From NCBI RefSeq assembly GCF_036365525.1, contig NC_090399.1:50128430-50192429 (forward strand): 64,000 nt of DNA, read 5' to 3'. The notes below the pieces were generated by a model that was not told the origin of the DNA, did no database searches, and saw only the letters and a list, made by a program, of their open reading frames with translations. The DNA comes from Heterodontus francisci. Its lineage: Eukaryota. The stretch's first letter is position 1. Each line of letters starts with the position of its first letter. A program made the position numbers and the translations under genes. Below, piece after piece: positions 4,226 through 61,902 of this stretch.

Positions 4226-4441
4226 GCTTCCCCTCTCCCTTTCAATGATTGATTTGTGTTGGGTGAGGTCAGCGAGAGATATGGAAAGACAGTGAGGAAA
4301 TAGAGTTGAGGTACAGATCAGCGTTATCTCACTGAATGGAGGAATAGACATAAAGGGGCCTAATGGCCCACTCCTGTTCCGATGACAGAGACATACACGC
4401 AGACACAGGCAGACACACACACATCCAGTGCAGTTCCTTAC

Positions 4442-4720
4442 CCCACTGATAGAGCTTGGCCTCTGCCAGGCTGCTGTGATCAATACGACAGGAGTATTGA
4501 TCCTCTTCCCCAGCATTTATTTCAATCTCTTTCTGGATCTGACGGGTCCCATCGTGGTTCGGTCGCACCCCCGAGGATTGGCTCTCAGACATTACCTCTC
4601 CATTCCTTAGCCAGTTCACCTCAATCTCTACAGGATAAAATCCAGTAACCAGGCAGGAGAGAGTGAACGGCTTGAACTGACTATTGGGGTCAATTCTGGA
4701 GATGAACACTTCAGGCTGAA
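4442..4720 (-). CDS. MHC class I gene A, exon 4 (alpha3 Ig-C1 domain)
   Basis: 279 bp, ag/gt flanked, phase 1-1: VQPEVFISRIDPNSQFKPFTLSCLVTGFYPVEIEVNWLRNG...PNHDGTRQIQKEIEINAGEEDQYSCRIDHSSLAEAKLYQW. C1-set C..GFYP..W and YSC..H motifs intact. Confidence 0.95.
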
Positions 4721-4837
4721 CTGTAATGGGAAAGGATAAAAACACAAACAATACACAGACACTGAATGGAACGAGATAATGGATTCAGAGATCAGTGATG
4801 TTAGATCAGAACATGGGGTAAAAACTGAAATAAATAC

Positions 4838-5113
4838 CTTTCCTTTGGAGATATTCCTTTCCAGCTTGCAAATGTCTCTTTAAAAGTTTAACTAGTTCTA
4901 CTTCCAATTGCCATTCCCAATACTTGTTCCAGGATTCATCAGTATCCCATTTGTCTTTAAGCTTCTCTGCAATGTGATTGGTTGCGACCCATCTCATTCT
5001 GTCAGAGTCTAAACTAATCAAATCCTTTCCATCATATCCAAAACGCATCGATCTCTTAATGGAGCCATTGTCAGTGATCGCAACAGTCCTGATCCATTGC
5101 AAAGTGTGAATTC
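4838..5113 (-). CDS. MHC class I gene A, exon 3 (alpha2 domain)
   Basis: 276 bp, ag/gt flanked, phase 1-1: GIHTLQWIRTVAITDNGSIKRSMRFGYDGKDLISLD..W..KDKWD..ELVKLLKRHLQAGKEYLQRK. Class I motifs HTLQ, YDGKD and KW present; no cysteines. Confidence 0.95.
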
Positions 5114-5439
5114 CTGTTAGTCACAAAAAATAAATCAATAATAAATAATTAAGTGTTAATGGAAAGTGTCTTTTTATAGATCACATACTGGAGGATGTTT
5201 TACCCAATTCGCTGGTTGAGAAAACTGACAGAATAGAGTACAATGCTGGTTCAACATCCTGCTCAATTTTAGTTTAAATTTAAAACACGCAGAAAAATAA
5301 AGGGTGGTATTGAAATACTGCTTTTCACCCAAACTTGTGGGCTTCCAACAGATGGTGAGGCAAATATCAGGGCCAGTTTGTGCTTCTATCTTTGGACAGT
5401 AATGGCTGGAGATTGGAGAGGCAGTCTGATAAAAGAGGA

Positions 5440-7838
5440 AGGGGGGGTCCTCAATCAGATAGAAATGGGGGTCAGAGTCACCGTCTGATCAGAGGGGAAA
5501 AGGGAACCAGTATCAGATAGAAATGGGGGTGAGAGTCACAGTCTGATCAGAGGGGAAAGGGGATCCAGTATCAGATAGAAATGGGGGTCAGAGTCACAGT
5601 CTCATCAGAGGGGAAAGGGGATCCAGTATCAGACAGAAATGGGGGTTAGAGTCACAGTCTGATCAGAGGGGAAAGGGGATCCAGTATCAGATAGAAATGG
5701 GGGTCAGAGTCACAGTCTGATCAGAGGAGAAAGGGGATCCAGTATCAGATGGAAATGGGGGTTAGAGTCACAGTCTGATCAGAGGGGAAAGGGGATCCAG
5801 TATCAGATAGAAATGGGGGTTAGAGTCACAGTCTGATCAGAGGAGAAAGGGGATCCTGTATCAGATAGAAATGGGGGTTAGAGTCACAGTCTGATCAGAG
5901 GGGAAAGGGGATCCTGTATCAGATAGAAATGGGGGTTAGAGTCACAGTCTGATCAGAGGGGAAAGGTGATCCTGTATCAGATAGAAGTGGGGCTTAGAGT
6001 CACAGTCTGATCAGAGGGTAAAGGGGATCTAGTATCAGATAGAAATGGGGGTTAGAGTCACAGTCTGATCAGAGGGTAAAGGGGATCCAGTATCAGATAG
6101 AAATGGGGGTTAGAGTCACAGTCTGATCAGAGGGGAAAGGAGATCCAGTATCAGATAGAAATGAGGGTTAGAGTCACAGTCTGATCAGAGCTGAAATGGG
6201 ATCCAGTATCAGATAGAAATGGGGGTCAGAGTCATAGTCTGATCAGGTGGGAAAGGGGATCCAGTATCAGATAGAAATGGGGGTTAGAGTCACAGATTGA
6301 TCAGAGGGGAAAGGGGATCCAGTATCAGATAGAAATGGGGGTTAGAGTCACAGATTGATCAGAGGGGAAAGGGGATCCAGTTTCAGATAGAAATGGGGGT
6401 TAGAGTCACAATCTGATCAGAGGGGAAAAGGGATCGAGTATCAGATAGAAATGGGGGTTAGAGTCACAGTCCGAACAGAGGGGAAAGGGGATCCAGTATC
6501 GGATAGAAATGGGGGTTAGAGTCACAGTCCGAACAGAGGGGAAAGGGGATCCAGTATCAGATAGAAATGGGGGGGGAAGAGTCACATACTGATCAGAGGG
6601 GAAAGGGGAACCAGTATCAGATAGAAATGGGGGGGGGGAAGAGTCACAGACTGATCAGAGGGGAAAGGGGATCCAGTATCAGATAGAAATGGGGGATAGA
6701 GTCACAGTCTGATCAGAGGGGAAAGGGGATCCAGTATCAGATAGAAATGGGGGTTAGAGTCACAGTCTGATCAGTGGGGAAAGGGGATCCAGTATCGGAT
6801 AGAAATGGGGGTCAGAGTCACAGTCCGAACAGAGGGGAAAGGGGATCCAGTATCAGATAGAAATGGGGGGGGAAGAGTCACATACTGATCAGAGGGGAAA
6901 GGGGATCCAGTATCGGATAGAAATGGGGGTCAGAGTCACAGTCCGAACAGAGGGGAAAGGGGATCCAGTATCAGATAGAAATGGGGGATCGAGTCAGAGT
7001 CTGATCAGTGGGGAAAGGGGATCCAGTATCGGATAGAAATGGGGGTCAGAGTCACAGTCTGATCAGTGGGGAAAGGGGATCCAGTATCGGATAGAAATGG
7101 GGGTCAGAGTCACAGTCCGAACAGAGGGGAAAGGGGATCCTGTATCAGATAGAAATGGGGGATAGAGTCACAGTCTGATCAGTGGGGAAAGGGGATCCAG
7201 TATCGGATAGAAATGGGGGTCAGAGTCACAGTCCGAACAGAGGGGAAAGGGGATCCAGTATCAGATAGAAATGGGGGGGGAAGAGTCACATACTGATCAG
7301 AGGGGAAAGGGGAACCAGTATCAGATAGAAATGGGGGGGGGGAAGAGTCACAGACTGATCAGAGGGGAAAGGGGATCCAGTATCAGATAGAAATGGGGGA
7401 TAGAGTCACAGTCTGATCAGAGGGGAAAGGGGATCTAGTATCATCTAGAAATATTGGGGTTAGAGTCACAGTCTGATCAGAGGGGAAAGGGGATCCAGTA
7501 TCAGATAGAAATGGGGGTTAGAGTCACAGTCTGATCAGAGGGGAAAGGGGATCCAGTATCAGATAGAAATGGGGGTTAGAGTCACAGTCTGATCAGAGGG
7601 GAAAGGGGATCCTGTATCAGATAGAAAAGGGGGTTAGAGTCACAGACTGATCAGAGGGGAAAGGGGATCCAGTATCAGATAGAAATGGCTGCTAGAGTCA
7701 CAGTCTGATCAGAGGGGAAAGGGGATCCAGTATCAGATAGAAATGGCTGCTAGAGTCACAGTCTGATCAGAGGGGAAAGGGGATCCAGTATCAGATAGAA
7801 ATGGGGGTTAGAGTCACAGTCTGATCAGAGGGGAAAGG
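5440..7838. repeat. 58-bp minisatellite, ~41 copies
   Basis: Unit gatcagaggggaaaggggatccagtatcagatagaaatgggggttagagtcacagtct; period 58 read from the line offsets. Confidence 0.95.
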
Positions 7839-7844
7839 AATAGA

Positions 7845-10625
7845 TTGAGGCAGTGGGTTTAGTTTTGAATTCATCCAGTGGTATGGGGAGAGAGCGGGGC
7901 AGTGGCATTTATTTGGGATTGATATAGGTCTATGGAGATAGAATGGGACACTGAGATTACTTTGGGATTGATACAGGTCGATGTGCAGAGAGTGGGACAG
8001 TGGGATCTGTTTGGAGATTAATCCAGGTCGATGTGGAGAGGTTGGGGCAGTGGGATTAGGTTGTGATTGATACAGGACTATTTGAACAGATTGGGGCAGT
8101 GGGATTAGTTTGTGATTGATACAGGTCTATGTGGAGAGATTGGGGCAATGAGATTAGTTTTGGTGTATGATACAGGGCTGCGGGGAGTGATTGGGGCAGT
8201 GGGATTAGTTTGGAGATTGATACAGGACTATGGGGAGAGATTGGGGCAGCGGGATTAGTTTGGAGAATGTTACAGGGCTATGGGGAGAGATTGGGGCAGT
8301 GGGATTAGTTTGGAGATTGATACAGGACTATGGGGAGAGATTGGGGCAGTGGGATGAGTTTGGTGATTGATACAGGACTATCGGGACAGATTGGGGAAGT
8401 GGGATTAGTTTGGACATTGATACAGTACTATGGGGAGAGATTGGGGCAGTGGGAAAAGTTTGGAGATTGATACAGGGCTATGGGGAGAGGTTGGGGCAAT
8501 GGGATTAGTTTGGAAATTGATACAGGACTATGGGGAGAGATTGGGGCAGTGGGATTAGTTTGGAGATTGATACAGGACTATCGGGACAGATTGGGGAAGT
8601 GGGATTAGTTTGGAAATTGACAGGACTATGGGGAGAGATTGGGGCAGTGGGATGAGTTTGGTGATTGATACAGCACTATGGGGAGAGATTGGGGCAGTGG
8701 GATTTGTTTGGAGATTGATACAGTACTATCGGGACAGATTGGGGAAGTGGGATTAGTTTGGAAATTGCAACAGGACTATGGGGAGAGATTGGTGCAGTGG
8801 GAAAAGTTTGGAGATTGATACAGGGCTATGGGGAGAGGTTGGGGCAATGGGATTAGTTTGGAGATTGATACAGGGCTATGGGGAGAGATTGGGGCAATGT
8901 GATTAGTTTGGAGATTGATACAGGACTATGGGGAGAGATTGGGGCAATGAGATTAGTTATGGAGATTGATACAGGGCTTTGGGGAGAGTTGGGGCAATGA
9001 GATTAGTTTTGGAGATTGATACAGGGCTATGGGGAGAGTTGGGGCAGTGGGATTAGTTTTGGAGAATGTTACAGGGCTATGGCGAGAGATTGGGGCAGTG
9101 GGATTAGTTTGGAGATTGATACAGGACTATGGGGAGAGATTGGGGCAGTGGGATGAGTTTGGAGATTGATACAGGACTATGGGGAGAGATTGGGGCAGTG
9201 GGATGAGTTTGATGATTGATACAGAACTATTGGGACAGATTGGGGCAATGGGATTAGTTTGGAAATTGCAACAGGACTATGGGGAGAGATTGGTGCAGTG
9301 GGAAAAGTTTGGAGATTGATACAGGGCTATGGGGAGAGGTTGGGGCAATGGGATTAGTTTGGAGATTGATACAGGGCTATGGGGAGAGATTGGGGCAATG
9401 CGATTAGTTTGGAGATTGATACAGGACTATGGGGAGACATTGGGGCAATGAGATTAGTTATGGAGATTGATACAGGGCTCTGGGGAGAGATGGGGCAATG
9501 AGCTTAGTTTTAGAGATTGATACAGGACTATGGGGAGAGATTGGGGCAGTGGGATTAGTTTGGAGATTGATACAGGACTATCGGGACAGATTGAGGCAGT
9601 GGGATTAGTTTGGAGGTTGATACAGGGCTATGGGGACAGATTGGGGCAGTGGGATTAGTGTTGGAGAATGATACAGGTCTATGGGGAGAGATTGGGCTCG
9701 TGGGATTAGTTTTGGAGAATGATACAGGACCATGGAGAGAGATTGGGGCAATGAGATTCATTTTATGAGATTGATACAGGGCTCTGGGGAGAGTTTGGGG
9801 CAATGAGATTAGTTATGGAGATTGATACAGGACTATGGGGAGAGTAGGGGCAATGAGATTCGTTTTGGAGATTGCTATAGTGCTATGGGGAGAGATTGGG
9901 GCAATGTGATTAGTTTGGAGATTGATACAGGACTATGGGGAGACATTGGGGCAATGAGATTAGTTATGGAGATTGATACAGGGCTTTGGGGAGAGTTGGG
10001 GCAATGAGATTAGTTTTGGAGATTGATACAGGGCTATGAGGAGAGTTGGGGCAGTGGGATTAGTTTTGGAGATTGATACAGGACTATGGGGAGAGTTGGG
10101 GCAATGAGATTAATTATGGAGATTGATACAGGGCTATGGGGAGAGTTGGGGCAATGAGATTAATTATGGAGATTGATACAGGGCTATGGGGAGAGTTGGG
10201 GCAATGAGATTAGTTTTGGAGATTGATACAGGGCAATGGGGAGAGATTGGGGCAATGCGATTAGTTTTGGAGATTGATACAGGGCAATGGGGAGAGATTG
10301 GGGCAATGCGATTAGTTTGGAGATTGATACAGGACTATGGGGAGACATTGGGGCAATGAGATTAGTTATGGAGATTGATACAGGGCTCTGGGGAGAGTTG
10401 GGGCAATGAGATTAGTTTTAGAGATTGATACAGGACTATGGGGAGAGATTGGGGCAGTGGGATTAGTTTGGAGATTGATACAGGGCTTTGGGGAGAGTTG
10501 GGGCAATGAGATTAGTTTTGGAGATTGATACAGGGCAATGGGGAGAGATTGGGGCAATGAGATTAGTTTTGGAGATTGATACAGGGCAATGGGGAGAGAT
10601 TGGGGCAATGCGATTAGTTATGGAT
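7845..10625. repeat. 50-bp G-rich minisatellite, ~55 copies
   Basis: Unit ggagattgatacaggactatggggagagattggggcagtgggattagttt; degenerate at the left edge. Confidence 0.95.
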
Positions 10626-11178
10626 TGCTCTGGCAAATTGATGACTGAGACACCTTGTGCTGATTGGTGACTTGGATGCTTTAATTGACTATCTTTCTGT
10701 CTCTCACCATGCACTTTCCCTGAATCATCGTCTATCTCCACGATCATCTCGTCTGCTCATGTTTCATGATCATTTCTCTATCATGGCCATCTCTCCTTTT
10801 TAATATTTCTCTATTCCTCCATATCTGTGTCTTTCCTCTCTCCTTCCTCCTTGCTCACTTCTCCATTTCTATCTATCCGTGTCTCTCCACATTTTCAGTT
10901 TCTCTCCCTCACCCTTGTCCCACATCACCCAATATCTTTTATGTCTGAACAGGGAGAGTGGCCAGGCTCTGGACATCGGGAAGGCCACAGGAGGTGAGTA
11001 AAAGCATTAACTAAAAGCCAGGAATAGTCCAGGAGCTGATGTGGGGCTTGCCGGGGAAGTGGGAGCAGCTGGTGTTGGAGAGTAAGCAAACCAGCAGGAA
11101 ACATAATTGCTTCATTCCCAACGGACAAGCCCCATTAAGCTGGACGTGAGTGGGACATTCTGATTTGACAGATCATAC

Positions 11179-11439
11179 CGGCTGTCTGGTTCATCCATTT
11201 CATTATCAGATTCCGATTCTCTTTCGTCACGTTGTATCGCCTCTCCCCCAGGAGATTGAGATAATTCCAGTCTTCCACATTGAGAGAGTCTGTTATGAAC
11301 TGCTGTCTGGAAGCCATCTGCTGGGTGTCACTGTCATAATAGGATAATGTTACTTCATTGAGCATGGCCACACCGACAAACTCAGGGGAATCCGTGATGC
11401 CGGAGATTCCCGTGTACAGTACAGTGAAGGAATCAGTGT
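11179..11439 (-). CDS. MHC class I gene A, exon 2 (alpha1 domain)
   Basis: 261 bp, ag/gt flanked, phase 1-1: DTDSFTVLYTGISGITDSPEFVGVAMLNEVTLSYYDSDTQQMASRQQFITDSLNVEDWNYLNLLGERRYNVTKENRNLIMKWMNQTA. PEF, YDSD, W60 and the N86 NQT sequon are retained. Confidence 0.95.
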
Positions 11440-11599
11440 CTGTCAGATAAAGAAATAGAGGAAGTGGTTAATAATAAAATAATAACATTTCTAAAAGCTG
11501 ATCAAGCTGAAACACATCCACATAGTGACAATGTCCAGTCATCTGCCACTTTATTGCAATACCAGAATCCTGTCTGATATTCGAAATAAGAGATCATTA

Positions 11600-13035
11600 C
11601 AGCAGAGGAGAACGGAGCAGTGGACTTTTGGATGAGCTCAAGTTTACGGAAGATGGAAGATGGGAGGCTGGCCAGGAGATAATTGGAACATTCGAATCTG
11701 CTGGAGCCAGAAGCATAGACGAGTGTTTCAGCTGGGCTGAGGCAGGGGTGGAGATGGGAGACATAACAGAAGCGGAAGTTGGTGGCCTTTGTAATGGAGA
11801 GGATGTGAAAGAAAGGCGTGAGGACGAACAAAGCAATTTACAACCAATGGAGGAATTTAGAAGTATAGTCGCTGTAGGAAACACAGCAGCCGCTTTGTGC
11901 ACAGCAAGCTCCCACAACACCAGTGTGATAATGACCAGGTAAGCTGTTTTTGGTGATGTTGATTGAGGGTTAAGTTTTGGCCAGGATACCGAGGAGAATG
12001 CTCTGTTTTGAAGGAGTTACATGGGATCTTTCACATCCGCCTGAGAGCCTTGCTTTAATGCCACATCCAAAAGATGGCACATCCGCCGACAATGCAGTGC
12101 AGCAGTGAATACTGAAATCCCTCCACACTGAAATATTGTGCTCAAATCTCAAGTGGAACTTGAACCCACAATCTCTGAGCCAGAGGCAACAGTGTGACCA
12201 CCGAGTCACAGCCGATACCCTATGGGATTGGAAACTCACCTCAGAGTCAAAGAGGGTACTAAGTTCTGGTTCAGCCTGAGACAATGGGCAGGGAGGAGGA
12301 TGACAAGTGACAAGCAAATGGAGTTTGTGACGGTGGCCAAAGTCAGTGGCTTCAGTTTTTCCAAGGTTTAATTCAAGAACATTCTTGCTCATCCAGTACT
12401 GAATGTTGGACAAGGAGTCTGGCAATTTAGAGATGGGGAGGAGTCGAGAGAGGTTGTGGTGAGTAGAGCTGGGGGGTGTCAGCAGCATACATGTGAAAAC
12501 TAACGCTGTGCTTTCGGATGATGTTGCCAATGGACACAATTTGCAGGGGAAATAGAAGGGGACACCAGAGGTAACAGTGCAGGAGCAGGAAGAGAAGATA
12601 TTGCAGGTGATACACTGGCTATAATTAGATAGCTAAGAATGGAACCAGGTGAGTTTAGTCCCACCCAGATGGATGATGGAACAGCAGCATTAAGGACAAT
12701 GGTTAAGGAGGGATAGTTTTCCTTTGTCACAGTCATATAGGATGGTAGTTGTGACTTTGATAAGAGCAATTTCAGTACTGTGCCAGAGCAGAAACCTGAT
12801 TGGAGTGATTCAAACATAGAATCATAGCAAATTTAAGGAAAGAAAGAGGCCACTTGGCTCATCACGTCTGTGCCGGCCGATAAAACGATCCACCTATCCT
12901 AATCCCATATGGAATTAAGGGAAATATTTGCGAGATGTTCAAGGGCCTTGCAGAGGAAAGGGAGGTTGGCAGTAGTTTGCAAGGACAGAAGGGTGAAAGG
13001 GGGGTTTTTAAGGAGTGGGTGATGATGGCAGATTT
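11600..13035 (-). mobile_element. old L2-type LINE fragments
   Basis: Remnant motifs FHMYAAD (YADD), WMSKN.LELNLGKTE, ETLV.A...SR....N.LLASLP, FESLQSGF. Confidence 0.7.
11810..12218 (-). mobile_element. Deu-domain SINE (SacSINE1-like) inserted in L2
   Basis: The reverse complement contains the Deu core (GATGTGAAAGATCCCATG...CCTGGCCAAAAC...CCCTCAATCAACATCACC...GTGGGAGCTTGCTGTGCACAAAGCGGCTGC) and a tRNA-like head; homologous to 58800-59105. Confidence 0.7.
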
Positions 13036-13396
13036 GGTTAACTTTGCATTCCAGGATGATCCTGGAACAGTGGACAGTTTTAGCAGGTTTAGATTAGTCA
13101 TTGAGAAGACCAAAGAACAATCTAAAGTAGAACTTCTAAATTGGAAGAGAACAAATGAGACATCCTTGTTTAAGACAGGGCATAAGTACATTCCTAGTAA
13201 CTACAAGCCAGTTAGTTTAACATCAGTGATGGGTAAGGTTTTAGAAGCAATAATCAGGGAAAAAGTCAACAAGCACTCAGAGGTTCGAGTTAAAGATAGT
13301 CAGCATGGATATATAAAAAGCAGGTACTGCTTGACTAATCTAATCACATTTTTTGAAGAAGGAACAGAGAAGATTGATGAAGAGAAATCAATGGAT

Positions 13397-15875
13397 CAAA
13401 AACAAAAAGTGCTGGAAATACACAGCAGGTCTGGCAGCATCTGTGGAGAGAGAAGCAAAGTTAACGTTTCAGGTCTGTGACCTTCCATCAGAACTGGCAA
13501 AGGTTAGAAAGGAATTAGGTTTTAAGCAAGTGAAGGGGAGGAGGGGTGGGGGAGAGAACAAAGGGGAAAGTGCTTGATAGGGCAGGACAGATTAAATAAC
13601 AAAGCTGTCCTGGGACAAAGTCAAAGTGTGTGTTCATGCTTGTGGTGAAAGACAAAATATTAGCCCAGAGACAGTGTCAATAGCAGAATAATGAGCAGCT
13701 CTGACTACATGAAAAGCAGGGACATGGTTAAAAAATAAAATATTAAAAGGCCAGTTATTGAACTCAATGTTCAGAATGCAAGGCTGTAGAGTGTCTAATC
13801 AAAAGATCAGGTGCTGCTCCTCGAGCTTGCGTTGATGTTCACTGGAACACTGGAGCAGGCCAAAGACACAAATGTTGGCATGAGAGCAGGGGGGAATGTT
13901 GAAATGGCAAGCAACCAGAAGTTCGGGATCATGCTTTCGGACTGAGCGGAGGTGTTCAGCAAAGTGGTCACCCAGTCTGCATTTGGTCTCCCCAATGTAG
14001 AGGAGACAGCATTGTGAATACAGTATACTACATTGAAAGAAGTACAAGTAAATCGCTGCTTCACCTGAAAGGAGTGTTTGGGGCCTTGGATAGTGAGGAG
14101 AGAGGAGGTAAATAGGCAGGTACTGCACTTCCTACAGTTGCATGGGAAGGTGCCATGGGAAGGGGACGAGGTGTCGGGGGTAATGGAGGAGTGGACCAGG
14201 ATGTCATGGAGGGAATGATCCATTCGGAATGCTGACAGGGGAGGGGAAGACGTGTTTGGTGTTGGCATCACGCTGGAGGTGGTGGAAATGACAGAGGATG
14301 ATTCTCTGGATATGGAGGCTGGTGGAGTGGAAAGTGAGGACAAGGGGAACCCTGTCGCGGTTCTGGGAGGGAGGGGAAGGGGTGAGGGTAGAGGTGCGGG
14401 GAATGGGTCAGAACGCCATATCAACCACAGTGGGGAGGAATCCTCGGTTGAGGAAAAAGGAAGACATATCAGAAGCTCTGTCATGGAAGATAGCACTATC
14501 AGATCAGATGTGTTGGAGATGGAGAAACTGGGAGAATGGAATGGAGTCCTTACAGGAGGCAGGGTGTGAGGAAGTGTAGTCGAGGTAACTGTGGGAGTCA
14601 GTGGGCTTGTAATGAATATTAGTGGACAACCTATCCCCAGAGATGGGGACAGAGAAGCCGAGGAAGGGAAGGGAAGAGTTGGAGATGGACCATGTAAAGG
14701 TGAGAGACGGGTGGAAATTGGAAGCAAAGTTGATAAAGTTTTCCAGTTCTGGGTGGGAGCAGGAAACGGCACTGATATAGTCATCAACGTACGGGAGGGG
14801 GCCTGAGTTGGACTGGAACAAGAAATTTTCCACATATCCCACAAGAAGACAGGCATAACTAAGACCCATGCGGGTACCCATAGCAACACCTTTTACTTGA
14901 AGGAAGTGAATGGAGTTGAAGGAGAAATTGTTCAATGTGAGAACAAGTTCAGCCAGGCGGAAGAGGGTGGTGGTGGATGGGGACTGGTTGGGCCTCTGTT
15001 CAAGGAAGAAGCAGAGAGTCCTCAAACCGTCCTTGTGGGGGATGGAGGTGTAGAGAGATTGGACATCCATAGTGAAGAGGAAACGATTAGGGCTGGGAAA
15101 CTGGAAATTGTCAAAATGACGTAGGGCCTCAGAAAAGTCACGGATGTAGGTGGGAAGAGACAGCAGAGAAAAAGATAGAGACAAGATAGGAAGAAATAAG
15201 TTCAGTGGGGCAGGAACAGGCTGACACAATGGGTCTGCCAGGACAGTCCTGTTTGAAGGAGGTAGAAGCGGGCTGTTGGGTGTTGTGAGACTATGAGGTT
15301 GGAAGCTGTAGAGGGAATATCTCCGAAGGAGATGAGGTCATTGACAGTCCTGTGGACAGTAGCTTGTTGTTCAGTGGTGGGGTCATGGTCCGGGGAGGTA
15401 GGAAGAAGTGTCTGAGAGTTGGCGCTCAGCCTCTACAAGGTACAGGTTGGTACGCCGGACAACAACAGCACCACCCTTGTCTGCAGGTTTGATCACAATG
15501 TCAGGGTTAAACCTGAGAGAATGGAGTGCAGCAGGTTCAGAGGAAGATAGGTTAGAGTGAATGAGGGGAGTAGAGAAATTGACATGGCAGATATCTCGCT
15601 GACAGTTCTCAAAGAATCTCCACTCAGTCCGAAAGCATGATCCTGAACTTCCGGTTGCTTGCCATTTCAACACTCCCCCCTGCTCTCATGCCAACATTTG
15701 TGTCTTTGGCCTGCTCATGTTCCAGTGAATATCAACACAAGCTCGAGGAGCAGCACATGATCTTTCAATTAGGCACTCCACAGCCTTGTGGATGCTGCCA
15801 AACCTGCTGAGTATTTCCAGCACTTTTTGTTTTTGTTTCAGATTTCCAGCATTTGCAGTATTTTGCTTTTATGTT
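13397..15875 (-). mobile_element. Penelope-like element (RT + GIY-YIG) with inverted terminal pseudo-LTR
   Basis: RT motifs IKPADKGGAVVV, FTMDVQSLYTSIPH, GVAMGTRMG, YVDD; GIY-YIG NVVYCI..LYIGETKCRL..EH. 15615-15875 is an inverted copy of the 3' end. Flanked by agaaatcaatggat / agaaagcaatggat. Confidence 0.9.
13458..13496 (-). ncRNA. minimal type-I hammerhead ribozyme motif in the Penelope pLTR (core variant)
   Basis: Minus strand AGTT-CTGATGGA-AGGTC-ACA-GACCT-GAAAC-GTTA-ACT: stem II AGGTC/GACCT, palindromic AACGTT stem III; core reads CUGAUGG instead of CUGAUGA. Confidence 0.6.
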
Positions 15876-17719
15876 AGAAAGCAATGGATGTTGTCTATTC
15901 AGGTTTTAAGAAAATGCTGACAAAGCACCACATAAAAGGCTGATTAACAAACTTGCAGCTCATGGAATAGGAGTATCGGTGCCCGATTGTAAAAAAAAAT
16001 TGGCTGAAGGATAGAAAACCAGGAGTCGTCGTAACTGGTTGCTTTTCAGACTGGAGGATGGTAGACAGTGGTGTTCCCCAAGGGTCAGTACTAGGACCAC
16101 TGCATTTTTTGCCATATATAAATGACTGGGATATTGGAATACAGAGTAAAATTTCAAAATTTGCTGATGATAACAAACTTGGAGGTGTGGCAACCAGTGA
16201 GGATGATATAAATCATCTGCAACAGGACATAGAAAGGCCAGCAGAATGGGCTGACAAATGGCAGATGGAATTAGTACAGAGAAATGTGAGGTGATACATT
16301 TTGGCAGAAGTGATAGGGAGAGGCTATATATGCTTAATGGCACAGTTCTAAAGAGTGTGCAGGAACAGAGGGACCTGGGGCTGCATGTGCATACATGGAG
16401 CGGGGAAATGGGACTAATTGCTCGACAGAGAGCAGATTCAATTGCCGAATGACCTCCTCTGTGTTGTAATGATTCCATGACTCTACGAGAGCAGAACCTG
16501 ATAATGCTTTATGTGATCTGGGCAGATCTGGCGATGAATGGCTAATCTGGTTATCAGCCACAAACATTGGATTTAAGGGAAGTGGAAAATGAGGACAGTA
16601 CCAGGGGGAATGAGCAGGGTGAGAAAGTAATGGTTTTAATGGGATGTAAGGTGGAGTTGAGGATGTGATTGAGCAGATCAGTAGCTGCAGGAATGTTATG
16701 ATGAACAGTGGGCAAAAGGTAGGTAGTTGGGAATTTGAAAGTGTGCTTGTAAGTGACTTGGGGAAGGGACTTAACTAGGGGAAGACACAGAAGGAAGTGA
16801 AGTTGAGAGGATGTGAAAGGAGAGGGATAAAAGGAAGTGATCAGAGGTGGCCTTACCCAGGGCTGAAAGCAATGCAATATAGAGGCCACGTGATAAGGTT
16901 ATGTGAATATGGGTGGGAGAATTTATATGGTGGGGGGGGGGGGGGGGAGCGGGGGAGAGGTTAATGAGGACAGGAGGGCAGTGATTTCAGAGTACAGGGC
17001 AAGTTCAATTGATTTCCATTCGTACCTATCCAGTCATAACCAAAGTGTCACATGCAAGGCTTCTCATCTTGCTTCTGCACTGCTCCTTTGATGTCCCCCA
17101 AGCATCTATCCTTGCCCCCTCCAATTTCTAATCTAAATGCTGGCCCTCGGTGAATTCATTTGAAAAGATAACATCAGGTTCCACATGTACACTGACTTCA
17201 CACAATTCTGCCGACATGTGAATATATTTGCCCGATGGATCAATGAATGTATTCTAGCACTTGCACACCGTCTCTGCATCATGCTTCCTTGCAAGGCCTG
17301 AATGGCCATATGGGAGACTGGGAGATTTCCTGGTGCCCCTGTGAATGGTTCCACAGCATTTCCCCTTCATCGTGTGAACCCCTTTTGAGGGAGCCCCAGT
17401 CTGTCCCAGCTTCCGAGCGTAGCACATTGCTCAAACACACATTTTATAGACTGCCTTTAGCACGTTCTGCATAAGGCACTCCAAGTATGTTATATTATGT
17501 TGGACATGCTGAACAGGAATTTGTCAGCTGCTGCTCTGATGGTGGACTACACGCTTAACTTCGAGCTTTGTTGAAAGGGTTTAGATGTTTGTAAACTGAG
17601 TGATTTTAGCATAACGCACTTGTGCCATCTGAACCCTGAGATCGAACTGCATTGAAGTCCCATATAGAAAGCTTTCAAGTTACTTACTATTCATATTTAT
17701 AACTTTTTAAAATTTGACT

Positions 17720-18632
17720 ACCTCATCATCACCTATTACAAGCTTTCCACATCCTCTGATTTGTCATGCTGCTTATTTGACATCCAGTTCTGGATGAGCA
17801 GAAATTTCTACCAATTAAATATTGGGAAGACTGACACCATTATCTTCAGTCCCCATCACAAACTCTGTTCCACAGTTACTGACTCCATCCCTCTCCTCGG
17901 CAACAGTCTTAGACTAAACCAGTCTGTTTACAACCCTGGTTTCATATTTGACCCTGAGATGAGCACATGACCAAATTTCTGCCCCATCACCAATACCTCC
18001 TACTTCCATCTCCGTAACATCACCTATCTCAGCTCATCTGCTGCTGAAACCCTCATTCATGCTTTTGTTACCTCCAGACTTGACTATTCCAATGCTCTAC
18101 TGGTTGATCTCCAACATTCTACCCTCTGTAAACTTGAGGTCATTCAAAACTCTGCTGCCAATGTCTTAACTCACACCAATTCCTGTTCCCCTATCACCCC
18201 TGTGCTCACTGACCTACACTGGCTTCTGGTCAAGCAATATCTTGATTTTAAAATTCTCATCCCGCCATGGACCCCACCCCTCCCTATCTCTGTAATCTCC
18301 TCCAGCCCCATAACCCTCGGGATATCTGCACTCTTCTAATTCCGGCCTCTTAGGCATCCCCGGTTTTAATCACTCCACCATTGCTGGCTGCGCCTTCAGC
18401 TGCTTAGGCCCTAAGCTCTGGAATTCCCTCCCTACACCTTTCAGCCCCCCTGCCTGTCTCTCCTTCTTTAAGGTGCCCTTTAAATCCTACTTCTCTGACC
18501 AATGTTTTGATCACCTGTCCTAATATTTCCTTCTGTGGCTCAGTGTCAAATTTTGTTCGGTAACGCTCCTGTGAAAGGCCTTGGCGCATTTTACTACATT
18601 GAAGGTGCTATATAAATGCAAGCTGTTGTTTT
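17720..18632 (+). mobile_element. L2-type LINE 3' fragment
   Basis: DIQFWMSRNF.QLNIGKT, ETLIHAFVTSRLDYSNALL, PITPVL.DLHWL, and an L2 3' tail ending gctatataaatgcaag-ttgttg. Confidence 0.8.
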
Positions 18633-18899
18633 TGCTGATTTAATCATGAGAATAAGATCATGGATTGTAAGGGCCTTGTTCACATGCAAATGGATTTTCT
18701 GGAGGGAGAGTGAAGAGATGGGCGGTGAGAGCTGATCTGCTGACAGGGTTGATCAGTGCTGGAAGGGGATGGGAAAGATGTTGGTGAGATTTACCCCCGG
18801 GGGCACACCAGGTCGGAAGGCTGGGGAGCGAGCAGGCTGAGACAGTTGCGATTGCTGCCTCTGGGATTGCTATGGGTAAGAAGGCAACGGCGACTCAGT

Positions 18900-19320
18900 G
18901 AATGGTGAGACAGGGAGAGTGATAGAGAGAGAGACAGGGAAGGAGAGGTGGAGAGTTAGTGATACAGGTAAAGAGAGTGATGGGGAAGGAAAGTGATATA
19001 GAGAGAGTGATATAAAGTGAGAGAGAAAGAGTGACACAGAGAGAGAATTTGATATAGATAGACGGACAGTGATACAGAGAGTGATATGGAGAGAAAGTGT
19101 GATGGGGGAAGAGAGCGAGTGACACAGGAGACACAATGTGATATGGAGAGAGCGATATAGAAAGAGGAAGACAGTGATAAAGTTTGAGAGAGTAATATGG
19201 AGAGAGAGTGAGAGTGATATAGAGAGTGAGGGAGAGAGGGATACGAAGAGAGAAAATTAGAAAGAGAGACAGTCAGTTAGAGACTGAAAGACTGAAACAC
19301 AGAGAGGTAGAGAGTGTGGG
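18900..19320. repeat. GA-rich low-complexity tract in intron 1
   Basis: Degenerate gagagtgatatagagaga repeats. Confidence 0.8.
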
Positions 19321-19475
19321 TACTCTCTACTGTGAGTCCAATGTCGCAACACACATCCCAATGACACTGACACTTCCAATCCCAGTCAAATCTCAGGGCG
19401 TTTCCTGCCCAGACCCTGAGCTGTAGAAATGAGAAAGAGAGAGAGTGAGAATGGAAAACTGAATTCTGTACTTAC

Positions 19476-19527
19476 CGGGATAGACCCAGGAAAAACACAG
19501 GGAGATGGAGAAAAGGATCAGCAACAT
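19476..19527 (-). CDS. MHC class I gene A, exon 1 (signal peptide)
   Basis: ATG at 19527; MLLILFSISLCFSWVYP plus phase-1 G, donor GTAAG. 52 bp, splices in frame to alpha1 (G+AC=Asp). Confidence 0.88.
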
Positions 19528-19708
19528 TCTGGGAATCCACTGTCCCTATTCCGTCAGTGACTGGGAATAAAACACTCCAAGGGGGACACAATTACTGCCT
19601 ATTAACTGGAAAAACAGGTAAAACAACAAATCGACCGAGACCTCATTTACTGTCGAACTTGAACTTTGATCATTTTCTGAACTGCAGCTGCAGAACCTGT
19701 GGGTGATG

Positions 19709-19813
19709 ATTGGTTAGTCTCTAAAAAATAACCCAATGAAAGGTTAAACTGCCGCCTGTCACCAGGAAGCTGAGAGTCAGACAGGCTGAGATTCAGACTG
19801 TGAAACAGAAACT
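19709..19813 (-). promoter_or_regulatory. MHC class I proximal promoter: ISRE, S, X, Y, CCAAT
   Basis: Gene strand: AGTTTCTGTTTCA (ISRE, 19813-19801), CAGCCT (S, 19788-19783), 16 bp, CCTGGTGACAGGCGGCA (X, from 19766), ATTGG (Y, 19737-19733), 19 bp, CCAAT (19713-19709); ~180-290 bp upstream of the ATG. Confidence 0.75.
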
Positions 19814-19854
19814 CAGAGTGAGATTGAACAGGTGTCAGAGACCAACTCCAGTGT

Positions 19855-20010
19855 AAAGAGAGGAGACACGGGGATCCTGGGCTCCCCCTCACAGTAAACA
19901 CACTGACACTGGTCCCACTCCCACTGGGAACTGTTAAACTGTCTCTGGTCAGACTGGAGTTATACCACAACAAGTTACATTTATAAACCACCTTTCATAT
20001 AGTGAACATC
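19855..20010. repeat. ~150-bp upstream unit, copy 1 (other copies ~28428-28546 and ~53606-53710)
   Basis: Shared core cacactgacactggtcccactccc..gggaactgttaaactg.ctctgg.cagactggagttata..acaa. Confidence 0.8.
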
Positions 20011-61169: not shown

Positions 61170-61202
61170 TGTGAGCTGTTGTGTCGGTCACACTTGGTGA
61201 AT
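61170..61202 (-). CDS. MHC class I gene B, first cytoplasmic exon
   Basis: 33-bp phase 1-1 exon (typical class I exon 6 size), ttccacag/gtaagt, DSPSVTDTTAH. Confidence 0.75.
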
Positions 61203-61785: not shown

Positions 61786-61902
61786 CTCTCCATTTCGTTT
61801 TCCAGATGATTATTCCGATTATTCCCAATATAACCAGCGCAGCGATGACTGATCCAGTTATAATTCCAAGATATAAGTGTCCTCCATTATTTTCAGGGAT
61901 TT
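61786..61902 (-). CDS. MHC class I gene B, connecting peptide/transmembrane exon
   Basis: 117 bp phase 1-1, tttcag/gtaag: EIPENNGGHLYLGIITGSVIAALVILGIIGIIIWKTKWR. The upstream intron is homologous to the intron following gene A's alpha3 exon. Confidence 0.85.

Follow-up and report, generated by a model that had tools for sequence, protein, structure and literature searches.

A horn shark MHC class I gene without the alpha2 disulfide is a member of a shark-wide nonclassical family, most likely UEA

The window, a 64,000-nucleotide stretch of the horn shark (Heterodontus francisci) genome, carries on its minus strand an intact and spliced nonclassical MHC class I heavy-chain gene whose alpha2 domain contains no cysteine. 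This gene is not alone in the loss, which is common to a large shark-wide family, most likely the one named UEA. On balance, we favour a molecule that would pair with beta2m and probably bind a fixed, non-peptide, lipid-like ligand. As a discovery the result is minor, the family and a Cys-less reference sequence being already published. Its value lies in marking a class I platform that has persisted for long in nature with no C101-C164 bond; human class I depends on this bond to engage chaperones.

As the sequence-only reading had proposed, the four exons in the window are in frame and free of stops, with AG/GT ends throughout (Table 1). It had named off-window transmembrane (TM) exons and junction reads as checks. 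The TM exon and two tail exons follow 1-3.5 kb past the window edge and complete the gene, which encodes protein P0005. Contigs of public runs (presumed RNA, none being recorded as RNA) join the leader to alpha1 in two studies, and alpha1 to alpha2, alpha2 to alpha3 and alpha3 to TM in one. The alpha1 exon is matched with 0 mismatches in contigs of runs X1, X2 and X4, and loose contig ends at 4442 continue into the TM exon; the alpha3 contigs mix paralogues. The intronic satellite is also present in the upstream paralogue.

Table 1. Positions of the gene's features (window coordinates unless prefixed with the contig, C29)
Feature	Position	Strand	Remarks
Promoter, 5' UTR and leader module	19431..20005	-	Common to family paralogues and neighbouring UDA
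ISRE-like motif (putative)	19802..19813	-	Pattern scan
X-box-like motif (putative)	19766-19758	-	Pattern scan
ATTGG (putative)	19737-19733	-	Pattern scan
CCAAT (putative)	19713-19709	-	Pattern scan
Leader exon, coding part	19476..19527	-	Joined to alpha1 in contigs of 4/4 public runs (presumed RNA)
alpha1 exon	11179..11439	-	V7, Y9, D59, R70, W84; sequons N72 and N86
Intronic tandem satellite	5413..7838	no strand	Period ~58 bp; self-matches at 58-base steps
alpha2 exon, zero Cys	4838..5113	-	T100, V101, L164; W97, R99, M114, F116, W133, W147, W152, W156
alpha3 exon, C1 Ig domain	4442..4720	-	Both Cys present; open frame
TM exon	C29:50127276-50127157	-	Beyond window
Tail exons	C29:50126545-50126513, 50125028-50124997	-	Beyond window

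The C101-C164 bond is normally universal in class I molecules. HMMER alignments to PDB entries 7cpo and 9eb3 set V and L of the horn shark alpha2 domain against the two conserved cysteines (HLA-A2-style numbering, taken from a published alignment), as the sequence-only reading had it; a first correction to that reading is that G100 is lost as well (T). Among 30 of the 34 matches in the horn shark genome, C101 is absent from all six family alpha2 exons, while the other 24 loci keep both cysteines in 23 cases and are uncovered at position 101 in one, a pattern that excludes chance. The question whether paralogues and other species share the loss could likewise be answered: a cysteine at position 101 occurs in none of the 90 family alpha2 domains that extend over it. 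V101 is nearly fixed across the family. Residue 164, by contrast, falls within the four alpha2 positions of highest variability; it can be D, S, G or a lone Cys, and is leucine in 7/7 orthologues of the horn shark sub-lineage and in 19/65 members elsewhere. The proposed paired hydrophobic replacement thus holds within the orthologous sub-lineage and is not a family rule.

The horn shark genome contains six family alpha2 and six family alpha1 exons, and many paralogues occur per species. The family formed a single clade of 71 rows (SH-aLRT 100) in a tree from which rows with <80% cover of any domain had been dropped, leaving 76 and losing most outgroups. In a second tree of 37 hand-picked family rows and 9 outgroups, family and UDA fell into separate clades, both with SH-aLRT 100, and the family also stood apart from classical-like rows; all trees, including a third one of the 37 family rows alone, were quick IQ-TREE runs with SH-aLRT support only. 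All named family matches came from sharks of six orders, in a word-based search that is weak evidence of absence elsewhere.

Of nine peptide-terminus anchor positions (V7, D59, W84, L123, L143, K146, W147, Q159, H171), only K146 and W147 keep the classical residue, in agreement with the initial count; H93, Q96, D119 and D122 are retained along with the N86 sequon, again as claimed. Classical (UAA) membership fails on the same residues, the hallmark being Y7, Y59, R84, T143, K146, W147, Y159 and Y171 according to passages of PMC4364491. A second correction is that L123, L143 and H171 occur in horn shark alone or almost alone, orthologues having Y/F123, T/I143 and Y171; the N72 sequon is a horn shark variant. 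Mean Kyte-Doolittle hydropathy, computed over a list of groove positions carried over with their numbering from HLA-A2 by alignment, was +0.34 for the horn shark gene, -0.47 for UDA and -0.35 for classical-like class I, bearing out the idea of a functional nonclassical gene with a groove more hydrophobic than theirs. Across orthologues from six shark orders the groove is nearly fixed: F5, V7, Y9, G24, Y62, R70, V73, W97, R99, M114, F116, W152, W156, Q159, E163 and L164 are identical in 7/7. Because this groove is the most fixed of those examined, the orthologue group is a sensible refolding target for ligand discovery.

We propose that the family ancestor lost C101 and G100, a state also seen in dogfish UCA, and that hydrophobic packing of V101 and L164, together with a fixed M114/W147/W152/W156 cluster, likely keeps the alpha2 helix on the floor in place of a disulfide. 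Residue 164 would then have been free to vary among paralogues, while the groove stayed nearly invariant across sharks in the horn shark sub-lineage. The hydrophobic, aromatic C-terminal half of the groove could take an acyl or ring moiety, R70 and R99 with Y9 and Q159 could hold an anionic head group, and the complex might be recognised by an innate-like T-cell or NK-type receptor. AlphaFold2, run on the heavy chain alone without beta2m, predicted that the class I platform forms without the bond (pLDDT blocks of 78-92 over residues 21-190); the model resembles class I structures, with a pTM of 0.54 and an rmsd of ~11 A against full chains. MR1 and YF were among the best PDB matches by sequence, at low identity; no structure of a family member was.

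The gene is also a mosaic, in which alpha1 tracks the sub-lineage, alpha3 tracks the species, and promoter and leader are 91% identical to those of UDA. The upstream module matches the UDA upstream region at 91% identity over 587 bp and family paralogues at 79-85%. A dispersed repeat was rejected, full or long copies occurring only at family genes and UDA (copy counts are lower bounds). Exon-wise conversion of this kind would make whole-protein trees and alpha3 dN/dS misleading for family genes. We tentatively entertain a bolder reading, speculative as it is: a shark analogue of MR1/CD1 without the alpha2 disulfide, present as one orthologue per species, whose groove (R70, R99, Y9, Q159 and the Trp cage) would be fixed across six orders for a single conserved microbial ligand, an anionic lipid or metabolite, while gene conversion keeps overwriting alpha3 from paralogues and copying promoter and leader over from UDA, an unrelated gene. 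If true, gene conversion would have placed two distinct class I lineages under one shared regulatory module.

The same residues might instead fill the groove. In this unlikely alternative, the gene belongs to the same family, but Trp, Met and Arg side chains of the molecule itself pack the groove, which binds no ligand; the protein would serve as an inducible ligand at the cell surface or partner a receptor, much as MICA or HFE do. Six Trp at groove positions, W147 and W156 invariant and W152 near-invariant, would suit such packing, the putative ISRE-like promoter motif would suit inducibility, and the fixed residues could form a protein-binding surface. However, floor and helix positions differ strongly between sub-lineages and are fixed within this one, R99 and Y9 of the floor among them, which suits ligand specificity better, and the helices lack deletions of the type associated with closed-groove molecules.

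Peptide binding is less probable still, and we regard it as distinctly unlikely. Since the family mostly retains Y/F123, T143, K146, W147 and Y171, its members could still bind a peptide C-terminus; peptides would be anchored at that end only, with the N-terminus overhanging an A-pocket end opened by disulfide loss. C101-C164 is located at the A pocket according to passages of PMC6926029, and alpha2 varies most at positions 158-170, near this pocket. Against this, Y7, Y59, Y159 and W167 are replaced in 7/7 orthologues, and W84, L123 and L143 of the horn shark gene would crowd the F pocket. The same passages of PMC6926029 report that loss of the bond in HLA-A2 abolishes TAPBPR engagement.

As to the family's name, a shark UEA lineage was described by Almeida et al. 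in 2021 (J Immunol 207:824), reportedly with a range confined to sharks, peptide anchors that are not conserved and a hydrophobic groove. UEA is also characterised in passages of PMC10751288 and PMC12562908, and a published cluster combines single-copy UDA with multicopy UEA. The horn shark gene matches this arrangement: it belongs to a multicopy family and lies ~54 kb from a UDA orthologue, downstream on C29 (P0160, which matches published Gici-UDA domains). Classical-like class I exons are on the same contig. Its direct nurse-shark orthologue, NODE_26056 of PMC10751288, is identical by eye at 61/87 alpha1 (70%) and 63/92 alpha2 (68%) positions and already lacks both alpha2 cysteines, which removes most of the novelty first claimed for the gene. 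The supplement labels NODE_26056 'UCA' and contains the label 'UEA' 0 times; together with generic NCBI names, this would fit an undescribed lineage distinct from UEA. That reading is very improbable, as our searches turned up no other multicopy class Ib family beside UDA, this one is confined there to sharks, and passages of PMC10751288 use an orthologue as a 'previously reported' query and tabulate the white-shark orthologue locus LOC121291255 as MHC-Ib. A statement that UEA lacks the C101-C164 bond was not found in the literature passages searched, which is no evidence that the fact is unpublished.

Comparison of the horn shark gene with paralogues gave dN/dS of 0.33-0.59 for alpha1 (five paralogues) and a fairly high 0.53-0.84 for alpha2; the alpha3 values (0.39-1.50) were set aside, dS there being too low (0.03-0.07) for them to be informative. 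Although the alpha2 ratios and the few anchors changed in horn shark only could hint at a decaying pseudogene with Cys loss as degeneration, open frames, the full exon set, spliced contigs (runs presumed RNA) and a groove fixed across six shark orders refute this nearly negligible reading at gene and transcript level.

Among named class I systems, UEA is the closest: like the horn shark gene it is multicopy, shark-restricted in searches and located on the MHC contig beside single-copy UDA. We found nothing separating the two, L123, L143, H171 and the N72 sequon being horn-shark variants. The sequence-only reading had left the choice between UEA, UCA and a new sub-lineage; UEA stands as most likely, and UCA does not. 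Dogfish UCA (AF515705, PMC10751288 Supplemental File 10) shares the Cys-less alpha2, V101, a hydrophobic residue 164, W97, W152 and W156, but was rejected despite the common Cys loss, with 32/92 alpha2 positions identical by eye and K146 and W147 replaced. UDA (P0160, P0154) is adjacent, with a leader exon 98% and a promoter module 91% identical at the DNA level, yet it keeps C101-C164 and most peptide anchors, shows 24-26% alpha1/alpha2 protein identity and, in a clade of its own, is a different nearby gene. Separate UGA-like exons lie at C29:49.57 Mb (L024). The non-peptide presenters shark UFA/UGA, CD1, chicken YF1 and MR1 have likewise lost peptide anchors and have a hydrophobic or aromatic groove. 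Unlike the horn shark gene, the UFA, UGA and CD1 reference alpha2 domains retain both cysteines, and identity with UFA/UGA was rejected on this ground and on dissimilar sequence.

The sequence-only reading of four in-frame exons with canonical splice sites and no stops was upheld for the nonclassical MHC class I gene. Its product P0005 (XP_067865849.1, 350 aa), which its source labels as a class I protein of Heterodontus francisci, matched at 100% identity in the alpha2 search. The transmembrane (TM) exon and two tail exons, also flanked by canonical splice sites, were found 1.2-3.4 kb past the window start, so the concern that TM exons might be missing off-window falls away. The alpha1-alpha2 intron is filled by two differing tandem satellites (5413-7838 and about 8000-10620), the first of which (about 58 bp) occupies a much longer stretch in the intron of the upstream paralogue (C29:50201953-50222429 and further, on the same contig). 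Upstream of the gene, positions 20600-41200 are packed with retroelement reading frames, LINE- and LTR-like by eye, most of them broken.

Exons of the focal class I gene within the window
Exon	Position	Strand	State
Leader	19527-19476	minus	AG/GT ends, open frame
Alpha1	11439-11179	minus	AG/GT ends, open frame
Alpha2	5113-4838	minus	AG/GT ends, open frame
Alpha3	4720-4442	minus	AG/GT ends, open frame

Transcript evidence came from contigs of public runs presumed to be RNA, none being on record as such. Within 4300-5300, contigs of runs X1-X4, which represent one sample, contained exons only and in all four left out the 117-base intron between alpha2 and alpha3, with breaks at its splice sites; their loose ends continued into the alpha1 and TM exons. 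The leader-alpha1 joint appeared in 4/4 runs compared, from two studies. In sample S1 the pieces covering alpha1 and alpha2 showed no mismatches and therefore belong to the focal gene; alpha3 pieces were a mix of paralogues, and run X5, under another organism code, differed at nine alpha1 letters. At the level of transcripts, the gene is functional.

Alignment to solved class I chains placed V and L opposite the two conserved alpha2 cysteines, as predicted for C101 and C164. With numbering read off the published alignment (PMC10751288 Supplemental File 10), all nine peptide-terminus anchor states agreed with the prediction (only K146 and W147 kept), as did retention of the beta2m contacts H93, Q96, D119 and D122 and the N86 sequon. 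G100, a glycine linked to the raised bridge position in class I in excerpts of PMC8236899, is also replaced. Because the bridge stabilises the part of the platform without Ig-domain support and C101-C164 mutation of HLA-A2 abolishes TAPBPR binding (excerpts of PMC8236899 and PMC6926029, respectively), its loss is a real structural oddity. AlphaFold2 (29 sequences) confidently built the class I platform without the bond and Foldseek with this model returned class I and MR1 chains; these results show fold compatibility only. An extra N-glycosylation sequon lies at alpha1-helix residue 72, absent from the inspected orthologues P0006, P0010, P0012, P0025, P0081 and P0096.

Cysteine loss proved common to paralogues and species. 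All six family alpha2 exons in the horn shark genome (62-100% identity) carry V at 101 and none C, with L, L, L, L, F and S at 164; among the other 24 loci examined there, 23 retain both cysteines and one is uncovered at 101. The 97 database alpha2 matches at >=50% identity, which include isoforms and are thus not independent, have V (84), I/A/L (6) or no coverage (7) at 101 and never C, and at 164 L (32), F (22), Y (11), C (10), S (7), D (5), G (4), W, H and T (once each), one gap and two not covered. Among the 18 matches below 50%, 17 have both cysteines; the remaining one belongs to the family and carries a deletion. The family forms one clade (71 rows, SH-aLRT 100), and its named members are all sharks. 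Near-uniform V at 101 beside a diverse 164 makes C101>V the family's founding change; residue 164 was released and not co-selected across the family. The proposed paired hydrophobic replacement is not supported as a family rule: V101 is nearly fixed, but S, D, G and C occur at 164.

Within the family, the focal gene grouped with Pristiophorus P0025, Chiloscyllium P0096, Carcharodon P0006 and Mustelus P0081 (SH-aLRT 99), joined by Heptranchias P0010 on the alpha1+alpha2 tree (SH-aLRT 98); Cetorhinus P0012 was added by similarity. These seven orthologues share 16 identical groove residues (F5, V7, Y9, G24, Y62, R70, V73, W97, R99, M114, F116, W152, W156, Q159, E163 and L164), besides L33, K146 and W147. 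The remaining 65 rows vary strongly at positions including 24, 99, 159, 163, 164 and 167; M114, W133, W147 and W156 are invariant in 72/72 and W152 in 71/72. Since this fixed groove is hydrophobic at one end with R70 and R99 towards the other, its ligand would be amphipathic and anionic; a lipid-like ligand is slightly favoured.

The exons differ in their histories. Against paralogues, the focal gene gave dS 0.68-1.02 (dN/dS 0.33-0.59) for alpha1, 0.22-0.36 (dN/dS 0.53-0.84) for alpha2 and 0.03-0.07 for alpha3; among paralogues (L001-L006, L041-L046) dS fell from 0.17-1.02, mostly >0.5, for alpha1 through 0-0.38 for alpha2 to 0.02-0.09 for alpha3. Orthologues formed a clade in the alpha1 tree, which rejected a horn-shark-paralogue clade (p-AU 1e-9), and alpha3 trees grouped by species, rejecting the orthologue clade (p-AU 3e-41), both values being optimistic as the groups were defined once the first trees had been seen. 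For alpha2 neither clade was rejected.

The promoter-leader module (19431-20005) is 91% identical to that of the neighbouring, unrelated class I gene UDA (G000:C29:50091187-50091773; leader exon 98%), closer than to family paralogues (79-85%), whereas the alpha1-alpha3 exons share only 50-57% DNA identity with UDA. Leader peptides of UDA and the family match within each species. Gene conversion between the two lineages is the simplest reading of this likeness, the alternative being a shared ancestral promoter that has evolved slowly; the sequences suggest such conversion together with shared regulation. A separate small contig (G000:C130:769824-771258) carries a promoter, leader and alpha1 exon of the family, which may form the 5' part lacking from the gene that has locus L005 as its alpha2. 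At about 61786-61902 and 61170-61202 (minus), the upstream paralogue encoding P0007 has an open TM exon and first tail exon; its database model omits both and uses another last exon. Elsewhere, ten or more class I genes that are almost identical and retain both cysteines (L009, L012-L020; C29:57.4-62.8 Mb, C815, C1290, C1655) resemble the published nurse-shark UAA-2 entry and represent either recent expansion or assembly duplication.

Among the 'previously reported' cartilaginous fish class I domains of PMC10751288 Supplemental File 10, nurse-shark NODE_26056 lacks any alpha2 cysteine and matches the focal gene, by eye, at 61/87 alpha1 and 63/92 alpha2 residues, compared with 38-52% alpha1 identity to two horn-shark paralogues. 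Dogfish UCA (AF515705) also lacks both cysteines, yet shares only 32/92 residues, and a ray entry labelled UHA lacks them too. The supplement labels NODE_26056 UCA and contains no UEA label; because parts of the main text place multicopy UEA beside single-copy UDA, we infer that 'UCA' was a working name for UEA. P0154, a UDA orthologue, is located about 54 kb downstream of the focal alpha3, and white-shark P0006 (LOC121291255), listed as MHC-Ib in that supplement, fuses the focal-gene orthologue to UDA; P0004 and P0006 each join two tandem class I genes, likely as annotation read-throughs. UBA and UEA are given in PMC12562908 as the two shark families that have expanded. Assignment of the focal gene to UEA is very probable; the family has almost certainly been described already, and the absence of the cysteines can be seen in its printed reference.
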